Position numbers and translations under genes: made by a program. From Candidatus Sungiibacteriota bacterium (GTDB lineage: Bacteria; Patescibacteriota; Minisyncoccia; Sungbacterales; SURF-37): a stretch of 64,000 nucleotides of DNA. Every line of letters begins with the position of its first letter. Position 1 is the stretch's first letter. The notes under the pieces were generated by a model. It was given only the letters and a program-made list of their open reading frames with translations. It made no database searches and was not told where the DNA came from. Location of the stretch: positions 1,516 through 65,515 of the forward strand of contig JACQMJ010000005.1 of NCBI GenBank assembly GCA_016203665.1, given 5' to 3'. Of this stretch, positions 1 through 63,250 are shown piece by piece.

Positions 1-879
1 TTTAGCGTGAACCGGCTGGTCCCTGATCCTTCCAATCCCGAAACCCTCTACCTCCTCACCGACGGCAATGGCCTCTGGGTTTCGCGCTCGCGGGGCGATC
101 TCTGGGCGCCGGTTCATGATCGCGCCGCCGTACTGGAACCAACGGCTAATGTCCTGGCCATGGCCGTGAATCCGAGTGATCGGCGCGAATGGTACGTTGC
201 TGTATTCCAGCAAAATCGCGGCCGCGTGCTGCGCACTTCTGATGGCGGCGAGACGTTCCGCGAAATTTACTTCACGCCCGGCGAGCGCTACGGCGTTTTT
301 GACCTTTACTATGATCGCCTCCGCGGGAGCCTGGTTATTGCCACGGGCCAGGGCGGGCTCCTGGAAACAAGCGACCGCGGCCTGACGTGGCGAGTGGTGA
401 GGTGGTTTGCCGACGGGCTGGTACGCCTGCTCGCGGACCCCTCTAACCCGGCCAACTGGTACGTTATGACGCCGCGCGGCAGTATATTCCGTACGTTTGA
501 CCGCGGCGGTACGTGGACCGATGTAACCGATTCATTAAGAGAATTTTCCGGGGCGTTTAGTCGTCAGTACTGGACCATTGACCGCTCGGGCACGCTCTTC
601 GCCGGATCGCGCTACGGCCTCGTGCGCTCCAGCGACAACGGAACGACGTTTGCCGCCCCGCCGCTCATCATCCCGCCCGACGCTTTGCCGGTGCGCGCGG
701 TGGCCGTGGATCCGCGTGTCCCGGGCCGCATTATCGCCTCGGCCGCGAGCCAGCTCTACGGCAGCGTGGATGGCGGCGCGTCGTGGATCATATTGACGCC
801 CCCGAGCGAAAACCCCATCACGCATCTTTTGATTGATGCCGAGAAGTCGCAGACGCTCTACCTCGTGGCACAGCCATAG
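1..879 (+). CDS. BNR/Asp-box repeat beta-propeller protein (Ycf48/sialidase-like); 5' end probably outside window
   Basis: Five spaced S-x-D-x-G-x-T-W/F motifs (TSDGGETF, TSDRGLTW, TFDRGGTW, SSDNGTTF, SVDGGASW); frame is open to position 1. Confidence 0.7.
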   Translation, partial: FSVNRLVPDPSNPETLYLLTDGNGLWVSRSRGDLWAPVHDRAAVLEPTANVLAMAVNPSDRREWYVAVFQQNRGRVLRTSDGGETFREIYFTPGERYGVFDLYYDRLRGSLVIATGQGGLLETSDRGLTWRVVRWFADGLVRLLADPSNPANWYVMTPRGSIFRTFDRGGTWTDVTDSLREFSGAFSRQYWTIDRSGTLFAGSRYGLVRSSDNGTTFAAPPLIIPPDALPVRAVAVDPRVPGRIIASAASQLYGSVDGGASWIILTPPSENPITHLLIDAEKSQTLYLVAQP

Positions 880-1526: not shown

Positions 1527-2255
1527 ATGTTGAAGCAGCAGAGGCTGGCTGAAGTTCTGCTCGCGCGTAAGGCGGTCCATAGCGAGCGCGAGGCCTTTGT
1601 CATCGTTACGGAAGGCCGCGTTTACGTGAACGGCCAAAAAGCCATTTCGCCCGGACAGACGGTGAGCGATAGCGACGTTATTGAAGTGCGGGCCGGCCGG
1701 GAATTCGTAGGACGCGGAGCGCAAAAACTCGACGCCGCGCTCCGCGAGTTCAACATTGATGTCCGCGGGGCCGTGTGCGCCGATGTAGGTGCGGCTACTG
1801 GCGGGTTCACGGAAGTGCTTCTGAAGCATGGCGCGGCCAAGGTGTATGCCATTGATACCGGCCGCGGCAAACTTGATCTGAAACTGCGGCAAGACCCTCG
1901 CGTGGTGGTCATGGAAGAAACGAATGTGCTTGCCATGCCGCCGCTGCCGGAGCTGGTCGGGCTTATAAGTATCGATGTTTCACTGACATCGCTCCGCTTC
2001 GTACTGCCGAAAATACTGCCGTGGCTTTCCAGAGGCGGCTCGGTTGTCGCGCTCTTCAAGCCGCAATATGAAGTGGAAGATAAATCGCTCCTCGAGCATG
2101 GCATTCTCCGCGATGTGGCGGCTCGCGCCAAGCTTGTCGGAGCATTTCGCACCTGGCTAAAGGAGCACGGCTGGCGCGAGTTAGGGTTCATGGAGTCGCC
2201 CATCCGCGGCAGCGAGGGGAACGTGGAGTATTTATGGCATCTCGTGTCGGTATGA
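1527..2255 (+). CDS. tlyA: TlyA-family rRNA (cytidine-2'-O)-methyltransferase
   Basis: S4-like N-terminus plus FtsJ-type SAM motif DVGAATGGFTEVLL; starts 1 nt after frr stop. Confidence 0.88.
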   Translation: MLKQQRLAEVLLARKAVHSEREAFVIVTEGRVYVNGQKAISPGQTVSDSDVIEVRAGREFVGRGAQKLDAALREFNIDVRGAVCADVGAATGGFTEVLLKHGAAKVYAIDTGRGKLDLKLRQDPRVVVMEETNVLAMPPLPELVGLISIDVSLTSLRFVLPKILPWLSRGGSVVALFKPQYEVEDKSLLEHGILRDVAARAKLVGAFRTWLKEHGWRELGFMESPIRGSEGNVEYLWHLVSV

Positions 2256-2770
2256 ATCTCTTTAGTAGCCGAGTCTTTGTTGCCGAAACTGGCTCTCGCG
2301 GTCGTGGTGTCTTTGCGAAAGCACACATCACTACTGGTGAAGTATTCGATTTTTCCGACGAATCTTGGAAGTTGACCGAAGCAGATACGGTAAAAACATT
2401 ACCGAGAAAACTTCTTTGTTTATGTTGCGAATACGAACACGATCCTCGATTTATGGTATGTCCCACCGACTTTACTGCTCCACCGATAAGCCATATTGTG
2501 AATCACTCCTGCGATCCAAATATGGCGTCAACTGATAACTATGAAACGGTAGTAACTCTTCGCAACATCTCGCCAGGAGAGGAGCTGACATTCGATTATG
2601 CGACATTTAACACCGGCACTGATGAGTTCTATTGCACCTGTGGTGCAGCTTGTTGTCGTGGCTATGTAACCGGTATGGATTGGAGAATCCCTTCTTTGCA
2701 GGAGCGCCTCTCTGGTTACTTTCAGAAAAACATTCAAGAAAAGATTGACGCGCTGAAGCGGCAAGGATAA
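2252..2770 (+). CDS. SET-domain protein (putative protein-lysine methyltransferase)
   Basis: GRGVFA, NHSCDPN and ELTFDY SET motifs plus Cys-rich post-SET CTCGAACCRG; ATGA overlap with tlyA stop. Confidence 0.8.
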   Translation: MNLFSSRVFVAETGSRGRGVFAKAHITTGEVFDFSDESWKLTEADTVKTLPRKLLCLCCEYEHDPRFMVCPTDFTAPPISHIVNHSCDPNMASTDNYETVVTLRNISPGEELTFDYATFNTGTDEFYCTCGAACCRGYVTGMDWRIPSLQERLSGYFQKNIQEKIDALKRQG

Positions 2771-2781
2771 AATTCCCTTTT

Positions 2782-3858
2782 ATGCTTCTGACCATCCTCA
2801 TTTTCATCATTCTTCTCGGTGCGCTCGTGCTCGCGCATGAGTGGGGGCACTTTTTCGCCGCACGCCGCTTCGGCGTACGCGTGGAGGAGTTCGCTTTCGG
2901 CTTCCCGCCGCGCGTCGCAAGTTTTGTACGCAAGGGCACGCGCTACGCCTTGAACTTCATTCCCATTGGCGGATACGTGAAGATCTACGGCGAGTCCGGC
3001 GGGGATGGGCGCGATCCCGAAAGCTTCAGCTCGCGGCCGCTTTTCCAGCGCTTTGCCATTATCGCGGCCGGCGTTGCCATGAACGTTGTCTTGGCTTGGG
3101 CGCTCTTCTCTACCGGCCACGGCATCGGCCTGCCGACGGTGGTCGGTGAGGGCGAGATGGCGGCCGGCGCGGCGGTAACTATTATTGGCGTAGCGCCGGA
3201 TTCGCCGGCCGAGCGGGCCGGGCTTGAATTCGGCGATGTCATTAAAGAGGTCAAAAGCCGAACGTCAAATGCCAAAATCGAGCGCCTGGAGGATGTCCAA
3301 AAATTCATTGATGCGCATCGCGGCGAGGAGGTTATCTTTCAGTTGAAGCGCGGACGGGAGTTGATGGAACGCACGGCAGTCGCCCGCAGGGAGCCGCCGC
3401 CGGGCGAAGGCGCGGTCGGCATCGCCATGGCAGATGTCGGCATCGTGCGCTCGCCTTGGTGGCGGGCGCCGTGGGATGGAGCCAAAACAACGATGAGCGC
3501 CGCCGTAGCCATTACGACCGCCCTCGGCCGTACGGTGCGCGATCTTTTCAGCGAGGGCCGGCTGGCCGCCGAAGTATCCGGTCCGGTCGGCATATTCGTG
3601 TTCGCGAACGAGTCGCGGCGGCTTGGCATCGCCTATTTATTGGAGCTCGCTGGCATACTTTCGGTGAACTTGGCGCTATTGAATATTCTGCCGATCCCCG
3701 CGCTCGACGGGGGACGCATACTCTTCCTTTTTATTGAAGGCGTGCGCGGGGTCAAAATGAACCAGCGCCTTGAGCAGGCCATCCACACCGTCGGCTTCGC
3801 GCTCCTCATCCTCTTGATGGCGGCCATCACGTACCGGGATGTAGTGAGGATTTTTTAA
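2782..3858 (+). CDS. rseP: RIP (site-2) zinc metalloprotease, M50 family
   Basis: HEWGH in first TM helix, PDZ-like middle region, C-terminal NILPIPALDGG motif. Confidence 0.9.
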   Translation: MLLTILIFIILLGALVLAHEWGHFFAARRFGVRVEEFAFGFPPRVASFVRKGTRYALNFIPIGGYVKIYGESGGDGRDPESFSSRPLFQRFAIIAAGVAMNVVLAWALFSTGHGIGLPTVVGEGEMAAGAAVTIIGVAPDSPAERAGLEFGDVIKEVKSRTSNAKIERLEDVQKFIDAHRGEEVIFQLKRGRELMERTAVARREPPPGEGAVGIAMADVGIVRSPWWRAPWDGAKTTMSAAVAITTALGRTVRDLFSEGRLAAEVSGPVGIFVFANESRRLGIAYLLELAGILSVNLALLNILPIPALDGGRILFLFIEGVRGVKMNQRLEQAIHTVGFALLILLMAAITYRDVVRIF

Positions 3859-4035
3859 GTATTTGTCCTCCTCCTTTGACTTCCATCCCTGGCCATGCTA
3901 CCGTCCCCCTTGGGAGTTAAAAGCTCCCTAAAGGTCATCTTATCGTATCGAATACCGTCGTTTTACGAAGTATCAGGTGCTACGAATGCGTAGTATTCCA
4001 AGTTCGTAAAATAGTGCGTATTCGCAGCACCAATA

Positions 4036-4251
4036 ATGTATCAGCGAGACAACACCGCCGGCTTTGGGCCGCGACCGATGTTTACGCCCAAGGATGGCGT
4101 CTCCTGGACCTGCGCACAGTGCGGGGCCGAGATCACGGAACTGCCGTTCCAGCCGCGAACGGACGAGAACGGCGTTCCGACCTCTCCCCTTTACTGCCGC
4201 ACCTGCCACCGCGCACGGATGCAGGACGCAGGCCCCCGGCGACGGTACTAA
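4036..4251 (+). CDS. small zinc-ribbon protein (CxxC...CxxC)
   Basis: CAQC and CRTC pairs around an ELPFQP segment; followed by a clean terminator. Confidence 0.55.
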   Translation: MYQRDNTAGFGPRPMFTPKDGVSWTCAQCGAEITELPFQPRTDENGVPTSPLYCRTCHRARMQDAGPRRRY

Positions 4252-4262
4252 ACCCGTCAGCG

Positions 4263-4296
4263 CAAATCCCCGGATGGAACCGGGGATTTGTGTTTG
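4263..4296 (+). terminator. Rho-independent terminator
   Basis: AAATCCCCGG-atggaa-CCGGGGATTT followed by GTGTTTGG. Confidence 0.7.
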
Positions 4297-4427
4297 GAGT
4301 ATTTTCAGTTACCATTTGGGGACCACTTTTAAATTACAAACCACAAGCATTAAATTCCAAACAAGCCCAAAATTCAAAATTCCCACGCCGTTTGTAATTT
4401 GGAATTTGTTGTTTGGGGTTTTGCCCT

Positions 4428-5666
4428 ATGGATTTCTACGATTACCTCATCATCGGCAACGGCATTGCCGGCGCAACGGCGGCCGAGACCATTCGGGAGC
4501 GCGACCCTGCCGGGTCAGTTGCCGTAATTTCCGACGAGCCGCACCCGCTCTACTCGCGGGTGCTGCTGCCGAACTACGTGAAAGGGCTTGCCGCGCGCGA
4601 GCAGGTTTTTCTGCGCAAACGCGATGACTACCAGGCAAAAAACATTATGCTTCTTCAAGGCGAGTCTGCAGTTCGGCTCGCGGTGAGGGAGCGCATCCTG
4701 CACCTCGCCGGCGGCCGGACCATTGGCTTCGGCAAACTTTTGATCGCCAGCGGCGGCCGGCCGCGGCCGCTTGATGTTCCAGGCGGGGAGCTTTTGGGCG
4801 TATCGCGCTTCCAGACTATTAATGATGCCGATTTGATGCGCCAATTCCTGGCCGGCGCCAATCGCGCCGTTGTTGTCGGCGGCGGCTTCATCGCGCTGGA
4901 ATACCTTGAGATTTTAGTGTATTGCGGCATCCCGGCGACGCTCGTCATCCCGCAGCCATATTTTTTCAGCCGGTTTTTTGATGCGGCGGGCGGGGAGCTG
5001 CTGCAGGATAACTTTCGGCGCCACGGCATTGCCGTAATTGCGGGCGAGCGCCTGGCGGCCATTGAAGGGGAGAACCGGGTGCGGGCAGTGCGGCTTGCCA
5101 ACGGCAGAACGCTGGATGCCGATTTCCTCGGCATCGGCATAGGACTTGTGCGCAATACGGCGTGGCTCGGCGCGGGCGTTCTCCTCACCGGGGAAGGCGT
5201 TGCCGTCAACGAATACCTTGAAGCGTCGGAGCCCGGAATATTCGCCGCCGGCGACGTCGCCGATTTCAACGACATTATCCTCGGCTTTCGGCACAGCCAC
5301 GGCAACTGGGGCAATGCCTTTCGCCAGGGCGATTGCGCCGGCCGCAACATGGCTCGTCCGGCCGAGCGCGAACCCTACCAAAGCGTCACCTCCTACGGCA
5401 TCAGGAGCCTGGGCCTTCTGGTAGCACTCGTCGGTTATGCGTCCAATGGGCCGGGCATTGAGACCATCAGCCGGCTTGACCGTAAAGGACCGGCATATGG
5501 GCGGTACTTCCTTAAAGAAGGGCGGCTGGTCGGCGCCGCTCTTATCAACCGCCACGAGGAGCGGCCGGCCATCCAGGCGCTCATCAAGAGCGGCGAGCGC
5601 ATGAGTGATGCGGCATTGGCTGGGCTGGCGGATCCGAAATTTGACATTGCCGCGCTCACTCCCTAG
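4428..5666 (+). CDS. FAD/NAD(P)-dependent pyridine nucleotide-disulfide oxidoreductase
   Basis: IIGNGIAGATAA FAD fold, VVVGGGFIALE second dinucleotide fold, FAAGDVA motif; ATG 4428 preferred over TTG 4413. Confidence 0.8.
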   Translation: MDFYDYLIIGNGIAGATAAETIRERDPAGSVAVISDEPHPLYSRVLLPNYVKGLAAREQVFLRKRDDYQAKNIMLLQGESAVRLAVRERILHLAGGRTIGFGKLLIASGGRPRPLDVPGGELLGVSRFQTINDADLMRQFLAGANRAVVVGGGFIALEYLEILVYCGIPATLVIPQPYFFSRFFDAAGGELLQDNFRRHGIAVIAGERLAAIEGENRVRAVRLANGRTLDADFLGIGIGLVRNTAWLGAGVLLTGEGVAVNEYLEASEPGIFAAGDVADFNDIILGFRHSHGNWGNAFRQGDCAGRNMARPAEREPYQSVTSYGIRSLGLLVALVGYASNGPGIETISRLDRKGPAYGRYFLKEGRLVGAALINRHEERPAIQALIKSGERMSDAALAGLADPKFDIAALTP

Positions 5667-10445: not shown

Positions 10446-10556
10446 ATGAAACCGGCAAAAATTGCAATCAATGGTTTCGGACGCACCCCGCACCGATCCC
10501 GCTTGCAGCGGGATGGTGCGGGGCGAGAGTCGGCATGCGGCAATCAGTTGTTCTGA
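10446..10556 (+). other. 36-codon upstream ORF whose first 13 codons re-encode the GAPDH N-terminus (MKPAKIAINGFGR), then a bulged 16-bp hairpin (10486-10523)
   Basis: Direct translation; KIAINGFGR is identical to gap codons 3-11, yet 8 of the 9 codons differ synonymously. Confidence 0.6.
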
Positions 10557-10564
10557 AGTAGACT

Positions 10565-11599
10565 ATGGTGAAAATAGCTATAAACGGCTTTGGGAGAATT
10601 GGCCGCTCGTTTTTCCGCGCCGCGTTCGCCTCGCCCGCCGTAGCTTCAGCGGAGGCGGGGCCGCCGGAGTTTGATATAGTAGCCGTGAACGACCTGGCCG
10701 ATCCCCAGACACTCGCCTACCTCCTGAAGTACGACTCGGTCTACGGCCGCTACGCTAAAAGTGTGGAGGCGGCCTCGGGCGGGCTCATCGTGGATGGCAC
10801 GCCCGTAGGCGTGCTCGCGGAAAAGGAGCCGGCGCGGCTTCCTTGGGCGAACCTTGGCGTTGACATAGTTGTTGAATCCACCGGGTTCTTCACGGACGGC
10901 GCGCGGGCGAGGGCGCACCTCGGCGCCGGCGCCAAGAGGGTGGTCATCACCGCTCCGGCGAGCGGAGAGGTGACGACGGCGCTCATCGGCGTCAATGATG
11001 ACAGGTTCGCCGAATCCGGGCCGCTCACCTGCAATGCCTCCTGCACCACGAACTCCGTGGCCCCGGTGCTCCAGATACTCCTCGAGCGCCTCGGCATCAA
11101 GAAAGCCGGCATGATCACGGCCCACGGTTACACCGCGAGCCAGAAACTCGTGGATGGTCCCGACGGTAAAGACCCGCGCCGAGGCCGGGCCGCGGCCGTG
11201 AACATCGTGCCTTCCACCACCGGCGCGGCCGAAGCCGTGATCCAGGCCATCCCCGCGCTTGAGGACAGGTTCAATGCCGTGGCCATCCGCGTGCCGACCA
11301 TCACCGGATCGCTCTCGGTCGTAACAGCCCTCCTCGAGCAGCAGACGACGGCAGCGAATGTGAACGCCATCTTCGAGCAGGCATCGAAAGATCCGCGCTG
11401 GTCGAAAATATTTAAGGTTACGCACGAGCCGATCGTATCCACCGACATCATCGGCGAGCCCTATGGCGCCATACTAGACGCCGCGCTAACGAAAGTTACG
11501 GGCGGAGATCTGGTGCAGGTATTCTCCTGGTACGACAACGAGGCCGGTTATACTGCGACCCTTATTGAGCACGTGCGGCGGGTTGCGGCGAACCTATAG
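10565..11599 (+). CDS. gap: type I glyceraldehyde-3-phosphate dehydrogenase
   Basis: INGFGRIGR NAD fold, catalytic ASCTTN, WYDNE C-terminal motif. Confidence 0.95.
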   Translation: MVKIAINGFGRIGRSFFRAAFASPAVASAEAGPPEFDIVAVNDLADPQTLAYLLKYDSVYGRYAKSVEAASGGLIVDGTPVGVLAEKEPARLPWANLGVDIVVESTGFFTDGARARAHLGAGAKRVVITAPASGEVTTALIGVNDDRFAESGPLTCNASCTTNSVAPVLQILLERLGIKKAGMITAHGYTASQKLVDGPDGKDPRRGRAAAVNIVPSTTGAAEAVIQAIPALEDRFNAVAIRVPTITGSLSVVTALLEQQTTAANVNAIFEQASKDPRWSKIFKVTHEPIVSTDIIGEPYGAILDAALTKVTGGDLVQVFSWYDNEAGYTATLIEHVRRVAANL

Positions 11600-12893: not shown

Positions 12894-13433
12894 TCAACCG
12901 GCTGGTGCGCTCCGGCAATTCCGGAAGCGGATGAGGGCGTGGATGAAGGCGCGCCGGATATAAAGAAACATGGCTCCGGCCAGCACGACGACGCTTACCG
13001 CGAAGAAGGCGGTAAAGTAATAGACCGCGGTTGCCTGTCCTCCTACGCTGAACATGACGATGAAGGCGTGAGGGTCCCGGATGAAGAGTCCCGCCGCGAG
13101 TCCGAGACCGGCGCCGCAGATGATGTTCCAGCCGCAATAGGAAAGTTCGGTCCCGAGGCGGCCGCCTGATCCGGGAGCGATGAGCATTGCGCCGAGGTGA
13201 ACCGTGAAGGCGGTGACGGCGATGGAGAAGAAAGCCAGCATCGCCATGTCGGCGCTCGCGAGCGAACTGCGAAGATTATGCTCCTTCGCGAGGAGGATCG
13301 CGGCGAGGATAAGGCCGGCGGCGTTTAGGAAAAGAGAGGCGGCGCGGAAGACCGTGCGGCGGCGGCCCGGCACGCTTGCCGGCTGGACTCTGACGCCCCG
13401 CTTAACGAAGGAGAGTGTCGTGGTTCCCTGCAT
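12894..13433 (-). CDS. multi-pass membrane protein, unknown function
   Basis: Four to five hydrophobic helices from internal ATG 13433; the upstream part of the ORF looks non-coding. Confidence 0.5.
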   Translation of the reverse strand: MQGTTTLSFVKRGVRVQPASVPGRRRTVFRAASLFLNAAGLILAAILLAKEHNLRSSLASADMAMLAFFSIAVTAFTVHLGAMLIAPGSGGRLGTELSYCGWNIICGAGLGLAAGLFIRDPHAFIVMFSVGGQATAVYYFTAFFAVSVVVLAGAMFLYIRRAFIHALIRFRNCRSAPAG

Positions 13434-13636
13434 CTTTCGGCCTCCTTTCGGGTGGTGTCCGTTTTTCGCGGGTTGGTTCTCCGTAGCGGTCGTAGGCGGG
13501 TTTCTGGAGGTCCATACTATCCTCCGAAGGCTTTCGAATATTGGCCCGGCATGGGGTTGTTTTTCTGGAGTGCTGGTGCTATAGCTAAATATACTCTTGG
13601 CGGTCTGGGGCACCTATTTGAGATATTCACCATGCC

Positions 13637-13744
13637 ATGTTGAACAAACTCTTCGGACTATTTTTCAAAGACTCCGCACCGGAACCTTCGGTTCGGTACG
13701 GGGCAGGCATCGGCATCAATCTCAATTCCATTCATGCTGAATAA
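13637..13744 (+). other. 35-codon upstream ORF re-encoding the MreB N-terminus (MLNKLFGLFFKD...IGINL), split by a 36-nt hairpin insert (13673-13708)
   Basis: Direct translation; 14 of 17 alignable residues are identical to MreB with 8 synonymous codon changes; the stop overlaps the mreB ATG. Confidence 0.6.
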
Positions 13745-14789
13745 ATTTTTTGGTCTCTTTTCGAAAGATATCGGCATTGATCTGGGGACGGCGAATTCCC
13801 TAGTCTACGTGCGCGGCCGCGGCATTGTCATCAATGAGCCCTCGGTCGTGGCCGTGAACCAGAAGACCGGGCAGGTGGTGGCCATCGGGCAGGAGGCCAA
13901 AAAAATGGTCGGCCGCACGCCCGGCCATATTTCCGCCATCCGGCCGCTGGTGGAAGGCATCATCTCGGATTTCGAGGTGACCGAGGAGATGCTCCGCTAT
14001 TTCATACAGAAGGTTCACAACGGCTCGATGAGCGTTATGCCGCGGCCGCGCGTCGTCATCGGCATTCCCTCGGAGGTTACCGAGGTGGAGCGGCGGGCCG
14101 TGGAGGACGCGGTGAAAAACGCCGGCGCGCGCGAGGTCTTTCTAGTTGAGGAGCCGATGGCGGCGGCCATCGGCGTGCGCTTGCCGGTGCAGGATGCGGT
14201 TGGGTCCATGATCGTGGACATCGGCGGCGGCACCGCGGACATCGCGGTCATTTCGCTAGGCGGTATCGTCGTTTCCAAAAATTTACGCATTGCCGGCGAC
14301 CGGCTTAATGAGGACATCATCCGCTTCGCACGCGATGAGTACAAGCTGCTCCTCGGCGAGCGGACGGCTGAGGATTTGAAAATTGCCATCGGCTCGGCTT
14401 GCGAGCTTGATGAGCCAATGGAGGCCACCATGCGCGGCCGCGATCTTGTAACCGGCCTGCCGAAGGAGGTGGTCGTGGATGATGCGGAAATCCGGCGGGC
14501 CATGAAACATTCCCTTTCCGCGCTCATCGCCGCCATCAAATCCACCATTGAGGCCACGCCGCCTGAACTGGTGGCCGACATCATGCACCGCGGCATCGTG
14601 CTCGTCGGCGGCGGATCGCTGCTGCGCGGGCTTGACCAGGTCATTGCCGAGGAGACCCGGATACCGGTGGAGTTGGCCGAGGATCCGCTGACAGCGGTGG
14701 TGCGCGGCACGGGCGCCATCCTGGAGGATTTGGATGGCCTGACCGAGGTGCTTGTCAGTGCGGAGTACCAGAAGGCGCCCACAGTATAA
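13734..14789 (+). CDS. mreB: rod shape-determining protein MreB
   Basis: Actin-fold motifs IGIDLGTANS, VIGIPS, DIGGGTAD, VLVGGGSLL. Confidence 0.96.
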   Translation: MLNKFFGLFSKDIGIDLGTANSLVYVRGRGIVINEPSVVAVNQKTGQVVAIGQEAKKMVGRTPGHISAIRPLVEGIISDFEVTEEMLRYFIQKVHNGSMSVMPRPRVVIGIPSEVTEVERRAVEDAVKNAGAREVFLVEEPMAAAIGVRLPVQDAVGSMIVDIGGGTADIAVISLGGIVVSKNLRIAGDRLNEDIIRFARDEYKLLLGERTAEDLKIAIGSACELDEPMEATMRGRDLVTGLPKEVVVDDAEIRRAMKHSLSALIAAIKSTIEATPPELVADIMHRGIVLVGGGSLLRGLDQVIAEETRIPVELAEDPLTAVVRGTGAILEDLDGLTEVLVSAEYQKAPTV

Positions 14790-23792: not shown

Positions 23793-23858
23793 GAGCATAG
23801 ATTTTCAGCGGGAGCAGGTGAGTAAGATGAGTAGTAAGATGAGTAAATAGATAAAAAA

Positions 23859-23888
23859 ATCCAAATAGAAGCGATCGCTTATATTTGG
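23859..23888. repeat. 30-bp near-perfect palindrome, copy 1
   Basis: TCCAAATAGAAGCGATCGCTTATATTTGGA; 29 of 30 nt identical to copy 2. Confidence 0.9.
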
Positions 23889-23918
23889 AAATATTTGAGA
23901 TAGAATGAGTTTTACGGC

Positions 23919-24513: not shown

Positions 24514-24543
24514 TCCAAATATAAGCGATCGCTTATATTTGGA
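24514..24543. repeat. 30-bp perfect palindrome, copy 2
   Basis: TCCAAATATAAGCGATCGCTTATATTTGGA, 17 nt after the PaaX-like stop. Confidence 0.9.
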
Positions 24544-61309: not shown

Positions 61310-63250
61310 ATGGCAAAGATACTCGGAATTGATTTGGGAACGACTAATTCGGCCATGGCCATCGTGGAAGGCGGGGAGCCGAAGGTGCTTGAGAACAAGG
61401 AGGGTGCGCGCACCACGCCCTCTATTGTCGCGCTTTCCAAATCGGGCGACCGCCTCGTCGGCGTTTTGGCCAAGCGCCAGGCCGTGACAAACCCCAAGAA
61501 CACCATCTTCTCGGTCAAGCGCCTGATCGGACGGCGCTGGTCGGACCGGGAAGTCCAGACCGACCAAAAGCTCCTGTCCTACGAGATACGCGAATCGTCT
61601 TCGGGCGGCGTGGATGTGGCGATGGGCGAGAAGGCCTACCGGCCGGAGGAGATCTCGGCCATGGTCCTCGCTAAGCTGAAGGCCGACGCCGAGGACAAGC
61701 TCGGCGAGAAAATAACAGATGCCGTCATCACTTGTCCGGCCTATTTTGACGACTCCCAGCGCGCCGCCACCAAGGCCGCCGGCGAAATCGCGGGCTTTAA
61801 CGTCAAGCGCATTCTGCCCGAGCCAACGGCCGCGGCACTGGCCTACGGCTTCAACAAGCGCAAATCAGAGCAGATCGTAGTCTACGACTTCGGCGGCGGC
61901 ACGTTTGACCTATCGGTGCTGGAAATAGGCGACGACGTTATAGAAGTGAAGGCCATTGACGGCGATATGCACTTGGGCGGCGACGACTTTGACCAGCGCA
62001 TAATTTCCTGGCTCATCGCCGAGTTCAAGCGAGAGGAGGGCATTGATCTTGGCAAGGACACGCTGGCCCTTCAGCGCCTGAAGGAAGCGGCCGAGAGAGC
62101 TAAGCATGATCTTTCCACGGTCCTGGAAACTGAAATCAACATTCCCTTTATCACCTCCACGGATGCCGGGCCAAAGCACTTTCTTATTCGTATGACCCGG
62201 GCCAAGCTTGAGGAGCTGGTAGGCGACTATATTGATAAATCCATAGACATTACCAAGCGCGCGGTGAAGGCCTCAGGGTTTGAGCTGAAGGACATTGACG
62301 AGATCATCATGGTCGGCGGCCAGACGAGGATGCCGGCCATCGTGGAGGCCGTGAAAAACCTCTTTAGCAAGGAGCCGAACCGCACCATTAATCCGGACGA
62401 GGTCGTGGCCGTGGGGGCGGCCATCGAGGCCGGCATATTGCAGGGCGACGTGAAGGACGTTCTGCTCTTGGATGCGGTGCCGTTGTCTTTGGGCATTGAG
62501 ACCTTAGGCGGCGTGATGACGAAGCTGATTGAGAAGAACACCACTATCCCGACCTCCAAGTCGCAGATTTTTTCAACCGCGGCCGACGGCCAGACTTCGG
62601 TTGAAGTGCATGTTCTCCAAGGGGAAAGGCCCATGGCCGGTGACAATAAAACGCTCGGCCGGTTTATTTTGGACGGCATTCCGCCCGCGCCTCGCGGCAT
62701 GCCGCAGGTTGAAGTGACGTTCGACATTGACGCCAACGGCATCCTCTCGGTGAAAGCCAAGGACAAAGCCACCTCAAAGGAGCAGTCCATCCGCATTGAG
62801 GCTTCTACCGGGCTTTCCAAGGATGAGATCGAAAAGCTTAAGCGCGATGCCGAGGCCCATGCCGAAGAAGACAAAAAAAAGCGCGAGGCCGTGGAGGCGC
62901 GGAACATCGCTGATGCCATGGTCTACACCGCCGAAAAGGCGCTCCGCGATGCCGGAGACCTGCCTGACGGCAAGGCAGGTAAAGTACCGGCCGACATAAA
63001 GAAAGAGATCGAGGAAAAGATCGAAGCCCTGAAGAAAGCGAAGGACGGTGATGACCTTGAGGCCGTCAAGAAGGCCTCCCGGGAGCTGGCGCAGGCCTCG
63101 CAGAAGATCGGGGAGATACTGTATAAACAGGCTGAAGGTCCCGCCTCCGCAGAAGCTGCGGCGGGCGAGCAAAAGCCAAAGGACGAAGGCGCGGGCGAAC
63201 CGAATGTGAAGGACGCGGAGTTTGAGGAGAAGAAAAATGAGGAGGGTTAG
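61310..63250 (+). CDS. dnaK: molecular chaperone DnaK
   Basis: [16 protein letters not shown], full substrate-binding domain and lid. Confidence 0.98.

Follow-up and report, generated by a model that had tools for sequence, protein, structure and literature searches.

What does it mean when an essential gene is preceded by a diverged copy of its own beginning? The question is raised by a stretch of 64,000 nucleotides (nt) from a Candidatus Sungiibacteriota bacterium (contig JACQMJ010000005.1; hereafter, the window), placed by the analysis in the Sungbacteria-Parcubacteria group of the Patescibacteria, in which mreB stands behind a short upstream open reading frame (uORF) that repeats the first codons of the gene and is split by a 36-nt hairpin, and in which gap is preceded by a similar arrangement. 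The original prediction, made from the sequence alone, attributed this likeness to a shared process or to a control device. The analysis presented here indicates that the mreB hairpin is, with high confidence, a member of a dispersed family of palindromic elements lodged in a pseudo-terminus of the gene. As a whole, the locus is best read, and probably rightly so, as the work of a selfish palindrome akin to the REP elements of other bacteria and to the Rickettsia palindromic elements (RPEs), accompanied by a short terminal duplication, the uORF being a by-product.

The mreB locus is composed of the following features.

13637 to 13744, forward strand: uORF of 35 codons, running from the old (displaced) mreB start through the hairpin to a stop 8 nt inside mreB.
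13637 to 13671, forward strand: X', a pseudo-copy of mreB codons 1-12 (MLNKLFGLFFKD), matching mreB 13734-13769 in 26/36 nt and 10/12 amino acids.
13672 to 13707, forward strand: 36-bp palindromic element (CTCCG..CGGGG + CAGG), a family member by covariance model, fold, covariation and CARG flank.
13708 to 13733, forward strand: B', the pseudo-copy continued (codons 13-17, IGINL, at 13709-13723) and the junction to the intact start.
13734 to 14789, forward strand: intact mreB, 351 amino acids, with Pfam MreB_Mbl recorded for the exact protein.

The uORF translates as MLNKLFGLFFKD-SAPEPSVRYGAG-IGINLNSIHAE*, and the MreB protein, which is 95% identical to P0001, begins with MLNKFFGLFSKDIGIDLGT. 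Among the 17 codons that can be aligned between pseudo-copy and gene, six are identical, eight differ synonymously and three non-synonymously; B' reads ATCGGCATCAATCT where mreB proper has ATCGGCATTGATCT. The 36-nt insert is in frame, and its fold contains a C.A mismatch and a bulged G. The uORF ends in a TAA at 13742-13744, i.e., 8 nt past the A of the mreB ATG. The earlier description of the uORF, the codon counts, the in-frame hairpin and the overlap of stop and start was thus confirmed in each detail, as was the claim that gap presents a twin design, with these features:

10446 to 10556, forward strand: uORF of 36 codons, holding a pseudo-copy of the gap N-terminus (MKPAKIAINGFGR).
10486 to 10527, forward strand: family hairpin in the gap pseudo-start (CCCCGCACC-G-ATCCCGCT..AGCGGGAT-GGTGCGGGG + CGAG), with its core at 10486-10523.
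10565 to 11599, forward strand: intact gap (GAPDH, 344 amino acids), with Pfam Gp_dh_N and Gp_dh_C.

The gene proper starts with MVKIAINGFGR at its ATG (10565), and the upstream copy reads MKPAKIAINGFGR followed by the hairpin, whose DNA fold has an energy of -22 kcal/mol (z = -6.2). In L082, a relative without the hairpin, gap itself begins with MKPVKIAINGFGR, which resembles this pseudo-copy more closely than it does the working gap start of the window.

The likeness between both loci is not due to chance. The arm pattern CCGCACCG..GGTRCGG has two matches in the window, which are exactly the mreB and gap sites, against 0.02 expected from shuffles, and none of 100 shuffles reached two matches. 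A six-frame scan of the 64 kb (8 or more matching residues in 11, no more than 400 nt apart) presented the mreB and gap loci as the only strong short-range peptide repeats, and revealed no hairpin-free terminal duplicates in the window; weaker short-range peptide repeats were found by the same scan at 61443-61830. Given these counts and the family described next, the original prediction was right to regard the hairpins as related and the two loci as outcomes of a common process.

Its two further leads, covariation of the hairpin arms and repetition of the hairpin elsewhere with REP/RAYT-like behaviour, proved well placed, the covariation being strong and a dispersed family being found. The whole-window listing of inverted repeats did not rank the mreB and gap hairpins on account of their bulges, and hence a covariance model built from six copies was used. 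In the whole window, this model identified the mreB hairpin (60.7 bits, E 2.6e-16, span 13665-13711) and the gap hairpin (51.4 bits, span 10479-10531) only, the next match scoring 15 bits. The family consensus is CCCCG-N-A-N-N-(bulged R)-5-8 bp stem-TTC-stem-N-N-T-A-CGGGG-CARG. Further copies were located by the model in relatives and in the distant Parcubacterium L080, where two of them are in tgt, in frame and in opposite orientations. A metagenome scan with the pattern ACCCCG-N6-14-CCTTCGG-N6-14-ACGGGGC returned at least 120 stretches, and about 86 of those listed are good hairpins, mostly of one 34-nt form. Viral contigs were considered as vectors, but IMG/VR gives five non-canonical chance matches to this pattern, and hence no evidence for a phage.

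Covariation was evaluated on 108 aligned members. The alignment was fitted to the model and the scan pattern fixed the ends and the loop, while the covarying inner positions were left free. Standard pairing is present in 97.6% of cells, against 79% when shuffled and 28-54% with slid partners, and 231 cells are changed on both sides, against 62±10 when shuffled and 6-41 with slid partners. The outer CCCCG/CGGGG helix is invariant, and G-U intermediates are almost absent. Watson-Crick-only covariation, together with the lack of an orientation preference inside open reading frames (ORFs), points to a DNA-level element rather than an RNA motif: copies within ORFs lie on the same versus the opposite strand in 18 versus 17 cases in one set, and in 24 versus 13 in another. 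About 40% of the sampled copies are within long ORFs, and in-frame copies, of either orientation, are found in Tgt, a loop of TsaD, the N-domain of an AAA ATPase, Hsp20 and other proteins. Since different proteins use different reading frames of the element, it is not a peptide module.

As for the ends of the unit, the 3' flank C-A-R-G is conserved, with its G present in 63/63 copies; the base before the 5' A is A in 35/63, the 5' A itself being imposed by the selection filter. The core measures 32 nt in 56/63 copies, which makes the usual unit 36 nt, or 12 codons, within a range of 36-42 bp. Flank analysis yielded no target consensus beyond the preceding A, and classical short target-site duplication was rejected, given the excess of short flank repeats is weak and is explained by the long-duplication cases described below. 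Taken together, these elements are apparently an undescribed, dispersed family of 36-bp GC-rich palindromic DNA elements in Patescibacteria, with apparently selfish or mobile behaviour. No description of such an element in Patescibacteria was found in the full-text literature, whose coverage is incomplete, such that an earlier description is possible. Clustered copies were also observed: contig L115 has a group at 3696-3783 and 4515-4558, where a CDC48-like AAA ATPase has two adjacent in-frame copies of opposite orientation in its N-domain and an Hsp20 has one copy, and L184 has two family copies directly in tandem at 595-670. In an intergenic region of L082 (8770-8850), there is a tandem pair of another perfect hairpin repeat, CCCCGTGAGATAAG[C/T]CCTCGCTATCTCACGGGG, which may be another palindromic family with the CCCCG/CGGGG ends in common.

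The mreB and gap arrangements are not isolated. When the 75 nt before each hairpin were compared with the 170 nt after it, with mismatched pairs as the null, flank duplication was significant, and the relatives of the window as well as many new loci exceeded the 99th percentile of mismatched pairs. Pseudo-copies of the 5' end were found at mreB, gap, dnaK, uvrA, tsaD, rtcB, a class II aminoacyl-tRNA synthetase gene, serS and an unknown gene of 583 amino acids. The latter, in L080, has the uORF MKSETKKCQN-[hairpin] followed by the main start MEYKSQKVICQN, and no Pfam match. Pseudo-copies of the 3' end, with the hairpin opposite to the gene orientation, were found at rplL, fusA, rnj, alaS and hppA; at rplL, ..FETAGAKVELK* is followed by the hairpin and by FEAAGAKVELK*. 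A hairpin pseudo-terminus is also present at the 3' end of a tRNA gene, and one case, L130, is intergenic. The gap, dnaK, uvrA, tsaD, rtcB, rnj, alaS and class II synthetase assignments were confirmed with Pfam, and for serS, rplL, fusA, hppA and the tRNA, the names come solely from the sequence as translated or read.

In every terminal case, the hairpin is within a partial pseudo-copy that extends on both of its sides (X'-hairpin-B') and that stands head-to-tail against the intact terminus. The hairpin is 19-41 nt from the gene terminus, B' measures 4-41 nt, and in all 5' cases the uORF stops between -20 and +13 of the main ATG. At mreB, the element interrupts the pseudo-copy at codon 12|13, just before the phosphate-binding IGIDLGT strand, and at gap it lies inside the GFGRIGR NAD loop. 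From what is established about these folds, the GFGRIGR loop of GAPDH, the phosphate-1 strand of Hsp70 and MreB, and the T-loop of tRNAs could not tolerate 12 extra residues. The arrangement also has a fixed polarity: read on the (+) strand of the hairpin, the pseudo-copy is on the 5' side and the intact gene on the CARG (3') side in 14 independent cases, with L103 as the one exception. This polarity implies that the duplication is tied to the element, instead of resulting from random landing in a pre-existing duplicate.

The pseudo-copies further differ from the real termini in a particular manner. Over 16 cases, 62 codons are identical, 94 differ synonymously and 17 non-synonymously; the corresponding numbers are 14, 24 and 3 for the four 3'-end pseudo-copies that follow a stop codon and are not in frame. 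Given that mainly synonymous differences are present even in untranslated copies, in-situ neutral decay of a dead copy cannot explain them. Pseudo-copy and real terminus would hence have diverged while both were functional, and the simplest reading is that one copy of each pair may come from another lineage, by recombination between diverged alleles.

Such an origin fits the tract in L083 and L210 described below. At mreB, the cassette (i.e., the hairpin with its pseudo-copy) is also present in L083 and L084, whose MreB proteins are 93% and 89% identical to that of the window, respectively. Their uORF reads MLNRFFGLFSKD-PAVEPSVHYGAG/S-IGID.., with its stop 5 nt inside mreB; both retain IGID in B', where the differences are synonymous only. 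In comparison with the window, their hairpin presents the compensatory change ACC/GGT -> AGT/ACT. The three genomes have a 3-nt length difference after the hairpin, and the uORF is still open to the main ATG. L084 also has a gap cassette, in which stop and start overlap as ATGA. The gap cassettes of the window (10486-10523) and of L084 (6126-6161) have X' and B' in common (AGAGTCGG), and the inner stems of their hairpins are wholly unlike, ATCCCGC/GCGGGAT in the window versus AAATTCC/GGAATTT in L084, which suggests that one family member may have been replaced by another at this site.

The upstream copy and the hairpin are absent at mreB in L001, L082, L208/209, L210, L211 and L212, and the covariance model, run with filters off on 76 kb of L208, L210, L211, L212, L082, L001 and L002, found no family member. 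The hairpin-bearing genomes are not each other's closest relatives. The contigs of L083 and L210 are 100% identical from mreB nt ~180 on, including 2.4 kb downstream; in the first 180 nt of mreB, there are 29 differences (L083 197-380 versus L210 3309-3490), and the DNA upstream is unrelated. As read from these two contigs, this is a sharp recombination breakpoint inside mreB that parts a cassette-bearing allele (L083) from a cassette-free allele (L210). The identity beyond nt ~180 implies that one population holds both alleles, parted by a recombined diverged tract. Together with the patchy presence, this tract indicates that the cassette is dispensable and is moved or lost by recombination. 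A foreign 5' patch in the mreB of the window was considered and rejected, as sliding identity against the relatives shows no anomalous 5' patch.

These results are combined in the reading favoured here as follows. At a site tolerant of 12 extra residues, the element would stay as a simple in-frame insertion. At intolerant sites, it would persist only in a dead partial copy of the gene end (X'-hairpin-B') beside a regenerated intact end (X-B-gene), such that the mreB case would in effect be a terminal duplication of ~61 nt with the element in the distal copy. The cassette would then pass from one lineage to another through ordinary homologous recombination within the conserved gene, and be lost by recombination between X' and X.

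Expression of mreB would follow from this history, with transcription still arising from upstream of the old start, where one further feature is found:

13578 to 13595, forward strand: promoter-like motif GCTATAGCTAAATATACT, conserved, upstream of the old mreB start.

The motif is probably the mreB promoter. The cassette-free relatives L001, L082 and L210 also have it (GCTATAGCTA[A/G]TATACT) upstream of mreB; a sigma-70 consensus scan made no call for 13578-13595. Ribosomes would initiate at the old ATG (13637), translate 35 codons, melt the hairpin, terminate at 13742-13744 and reinitiate at the mreB ATG (13734). Whether mreB is translated by such reinitiation we regard as an evenly balanced matter. 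A secondary role of the uORF in translational coupling is plausible, and the frame kept across the 3-nt difference in three genomes is weak evidence that coupling may now be under selection. The original prediction had also stressed that the mreB start has no Shine-Dalgarno sequence. None is indeed present, but this is not special, given most genes in the window have none and such a start is normal for this genome. Among the gene starts of the window (e.g., 11618, 18883, 32808 and 59994), several have a TATA-like box only 7-12 nt before the ATG, and leaderless or very short-leader mRNAs are suggested to be common in this organism.

The least certain layer is how the duplication is formed. We tentatively propose, as a model, that an element-bearing homeologous strand would be unable to pair across the hairpin, and that the short 3' tail of that strand would re-prime some tens of nt further back, such that the gene end would be copied a second time. 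Such re-priming would cover the polarity, the xenolog-like divergence, the short distances and the coexistence with simple insertions at permissive sites. An alternative origin was weighed, in which in-situ slippage or flap duplication would be followed by allelic replacement of the working copy. A lagging-strand flap-ligation model was rejected, although it yields the observed topology: under it, 3'-end cases would be confined to lagging-strand genes, and rplL and fusA, which are normally co-oriented with replication, are unlikely to be such genes. A GC-skew test of the replication strand was not used, since it is confounded by coding-strand composition in short loci.

Several points weigh against the favoured reading. 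No transposase, recombinase or nucleotide-resolution pair of empty and filled sites was found, and mobility is hence deduced from distribution only. The copy number here is low (two in 64 kb), unlike that of classical REPs. A young duplication, in which the repeats would be identical, was not encountered, such that the forming event was never caught, and the re-priming model is only one of several that fit. The L083 and L084 pseudo-copies differ by seven synonymous and no non-synonymous changes, and the uORF peptide could therefore be selected. Finally, since amino-acid similarity served to detect the cases, ascertainment inflates the synonymous-only pattern; that untranslated copies have diverged almost to saturation at synonymous sites and yet retain their residues is nonetheless striking.

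Among the other explanations, the one that survives best is that the mobile unit is the hairpin together with its gene-end copy, with X' acting as a homology arm. The unit would home into clean alleles by homologous recombination, and each transfer would refresh X' from a functional sequence. This would account for copies that look xenologous even in untranslated 3' pseudo-copies, for the L083/L210 tract, which comprises the cassette plus 180 nt of diverged mreB, for the patchy presence among close relatives, and for targets that are highly conserved housekeeping genes and a tRNA, although this last bias may stem from the amino-acid detection test. However, neither the first formation of gene-specific cassettes nor the fixed polarity is explained, homology arms of 20-40 nt are short, and X' is identical between genomes at 27-31/36 positions, like the real copies, and is not clearly more conserved than the flanking genes. 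We consider homing of such a unit rather unlikely.

The dedicated control device put forward in the original prediction fares worse and is, in our view, improbable. The uORF peptide and the hairpin would here be a selected cis-regulatory leader, tying the expression of essential growth genes to the synthesis of a peptide that mimics their own N-terminus; it would serve as a sensor of translation capacity or an attenuator. In its favour, three diverged genomes retain the architecture at mreB, as do two at gap, and the uORF stays open up to the main ATG; the L083 and L084 uORFs differ synonymously only, stop and start overlap as ATGA at the L084 gap, and the mreB leader RNA hairpin is stable (minimum free energy of -42.3 kcal/mol, z = -3.1). 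Yet the cassette is absent in the nearest relatives, including an allele of the same population, and the same architecture occurs at gene 3' ends and at a tRNA, where the logic of a uORF fails. Hairpins within ORFs are found in both orientations, the Watson-Crick-only covariation of the family speaks for DNA rather than RNA, and untranslated pseudo-copies have the same synonymous pattern. Moreover, a uORF with a stop just past the main ATG follows automatically when a 36-nt in-frame insert is placed in a head-to-tail duplicated coding start, which also counts against a dedicated device: the old start codon is kept, the element lies in frame in former coding sequence, and the junction shifts the frame by +1, such that the AT-rich mreB start soon gives a stop. 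A leader-peptide transcription attenuator in particular was rejected, as no T-run follows the mreB hairpin and the terminator scan is empty at 13672-13720.

Programmed recoding, in which ribosomes from 13637 would bypass the hairpin and the second start with X' as the real N-terminus, after the manner of T4 gene 60 or of the byp elements of yeast mitochondria, is highly improbable. The GC-rich hairpin right after codon 12, the matching Asp codons that close X' (GAC) and X (GAT), and the protein-like conservation of X' would suit it, but mreB has its own ATG and a complete N-terminus, the bypass gap would be 97 nt, and recoding cannot work for the 3'-end and tRNA cases. Bypass of the T4 gene 60 type was rejected on the same grounds, there being no stop after the GAC that would serve as take-off codon. 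Chance similarity or an assembly artefact, e.g., strain-variant bubbles flattened to a tandem repeat in a metagenome whose population may hold alleles with and without the hairpin (as at least one does), deserves next to no credence, given the independent Logan assembly of SRR12113383 equals the region base for base, the architecture recurs across many samples, genes and assemblers, and both the arm-pattern count and the covariation are far from random.

With respect to known systems, the closest parallels are small selfish palindromes. RPEs were reportedly described by Ogata and colleagues in 2000 as selfish DNA in protein-coding genes. The present elements are alike in that they are palindromic repeats of a reduced genome, inserted in frame in genes, in several reading frames and at permissive sites, and occurring also in non-coding DNA and RNA genes. 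They differ in that RPEs measure ~100-150 bp, comprise the families RPE-1..8, are restricted to Rickettsia and are unrelated in sequence, whereas those found here measure 36-42 bp and belong to Patescibacteria; to our knowledge, no regenerated gene terminus beside an element-bearing pseudo-terminus has been described for RPEs.

Mobile GC clusters and byp elements of yeast mitochondria, as well as the repetitive hairpin elements of sponge and fungal mitochondria, are likewise short and GC-rich, and have spread through compact genomes richer in AT, where they also enter coding sequence; they differ in being organellar, byps being skipped by the ribosome, and in having no terminal duplication. 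Integrative elements can carry a replacement gene end, as e14 does in icd and islands do in tRNA 3' ends. Here too an intact gene end stands beside a displaced, mainly synonymously different copy, and a tRNA 3' end is among the targets, but a distance of only 60-120 nt parts the copies, neither an integrase nor cargo lies in between, the hairpin has the pseudo-copy on both of its sides, and each target gene has its own copy. Coupling through overlapping stop and start is known from uORFs and leader peptides, such as the small ORFs of MIRU in mycobacterial operons, and there as here the stop of a short ORF overlaps or abuts a downstream start without a Shine-Dalgarno sequence; the difference is that the uORF here is a fossil of the start of the gene itself, a by-product of insertion that is absent from close relatives.

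REPs and REPINs, which are associated with RAYT (Y1 HUH) transposases, are GC-rich imperfect palindromes of 20-40 nt with a conserved unpaired tag (PMC3733652, PMC2817692). The 32-nt core with its CARG, paired in 97.6% of cells, shares with them a short, GC-rich, imperfect palindrome, compensatory arm changes, bulges or mismatches at fixed places, and a location that is sometimes within ORFs or gives stop codons (PMC3733652, PMC2817692). The REP tag, GTAG or CGTC, stands at one end of the palindrome, and its possible counterpart here is the invariant unpaired flank CARG (CYTG on the other strand); GTA[G/C] does occur in the family, though within the stem, where it follows CCCC. REPs lie for the most part outside genes and in many copies, which contrasts with two copies per 64 kb and the large share within long ORFs; the unit here has a length that is a multiple of three, and an association with terminal duplications is not reported for REPs (PMC3733652, PMC2817692). 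No RAYT or Y1 transposase was noticed in the inspected ORFs, neither the window nor the hairpin loci having been scanned systematically for domains. In sum, the element works like REPs and RPEs, as a small selfish palindrome, but departs from REPs in copy number and extragenic location, and from RPEs in size and host, which are defining features of these families. That the coupling of insertion to terminus regeneration is a new mechanism is a possibility that we advance with reserve.

Three other systems were discarded. A diversity-generating retroelement would not produce these differences, which are at third codon positions, in both directions and not adenine-specific, and no reverse transcriptase adjoins the cassette in the window. 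In TIGR-Tas guide arrays, each of the tandem units contains box C/D motifs and a pair of short spacers matching the two target strands (bioRxiv 10.64898/2026.09.09.750476); the units here are solitary, have no box C (TGATGA), and both of their flanks match the same strand of the neighbouring gene with only ~75% identity. Lastly, a known RNA family is not supported by Rfam 15, which gives no match at the gathering threshold anywhere in the window; ARAGORN found no tRNA or tmRNA there.

Some observations were made in the surroundings. In the window, the spacer between proS and mreB is occupied by an ORF of 239 amino acids (12894-13613, reverse strand) with no Pfam match, and the relatives have other ORFs or none in it, such that the spacer is a variable spot. 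In L212, a close and hairpin-free relative, a reverse-transcriptase gene (825-1865; Pfam RVT_1, 346 amino acids) lies directly upstream of proS. L084 has at 2210-4360 a thioredoxin-reductase-like gene (Pyr_redox_2) of 716 amino acids with Intein_splicing/LAGLIDADG matches, i.e., an intein-containing gene, the L082 orthologue of which measures 326 amino acids. Elsewhere in the window, two palindromes that are akin to each other, AT-rich and perfect or nearly so, (A)TCCAAATA[T/G]AAGCGA|TCGCTTATATTTGGA, are located ~650 bp apart (23853-23896 and 24514-24543) and look like paired operator or recombination sites.

If the favoured reading is true, Patescibacteria, whose tiny genomes are usually thought to be poor in mobile DNA, would hold a pervasive and unnoticed small selfish element, which would have added 12-residue inserts to many conserved proteins and would flag the tracts in which diverged lineages have recombined. 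Genes that are essential, mreB and gap among them, would be translated behind a fossil uORF, and pseudo-starts and pseudo-ends would mislead gene callers and the prediction of start sites. With its fixed polarity and xenolog-like pseudo-termini, the arrangement points to a reaction of insertion or repair that is not known from any described transposon family. It is conceivable, though less likely than not, that the hairpin is the visible side of a new kind of bacterial mobile DNA, through which a parasite of 36 bp could colonise the most conserved genes and tRNAs of the streamlined genomes of the candidate phyla radiation, and then ride on homologous recombination between species. Its establishment at otherwise lethal sites would be coupled to regeneration of the interrupted gene end, by a polar reaction linked to recombination or repair that would re-copy 40-80 nt of the target beside the element-bearing copy.

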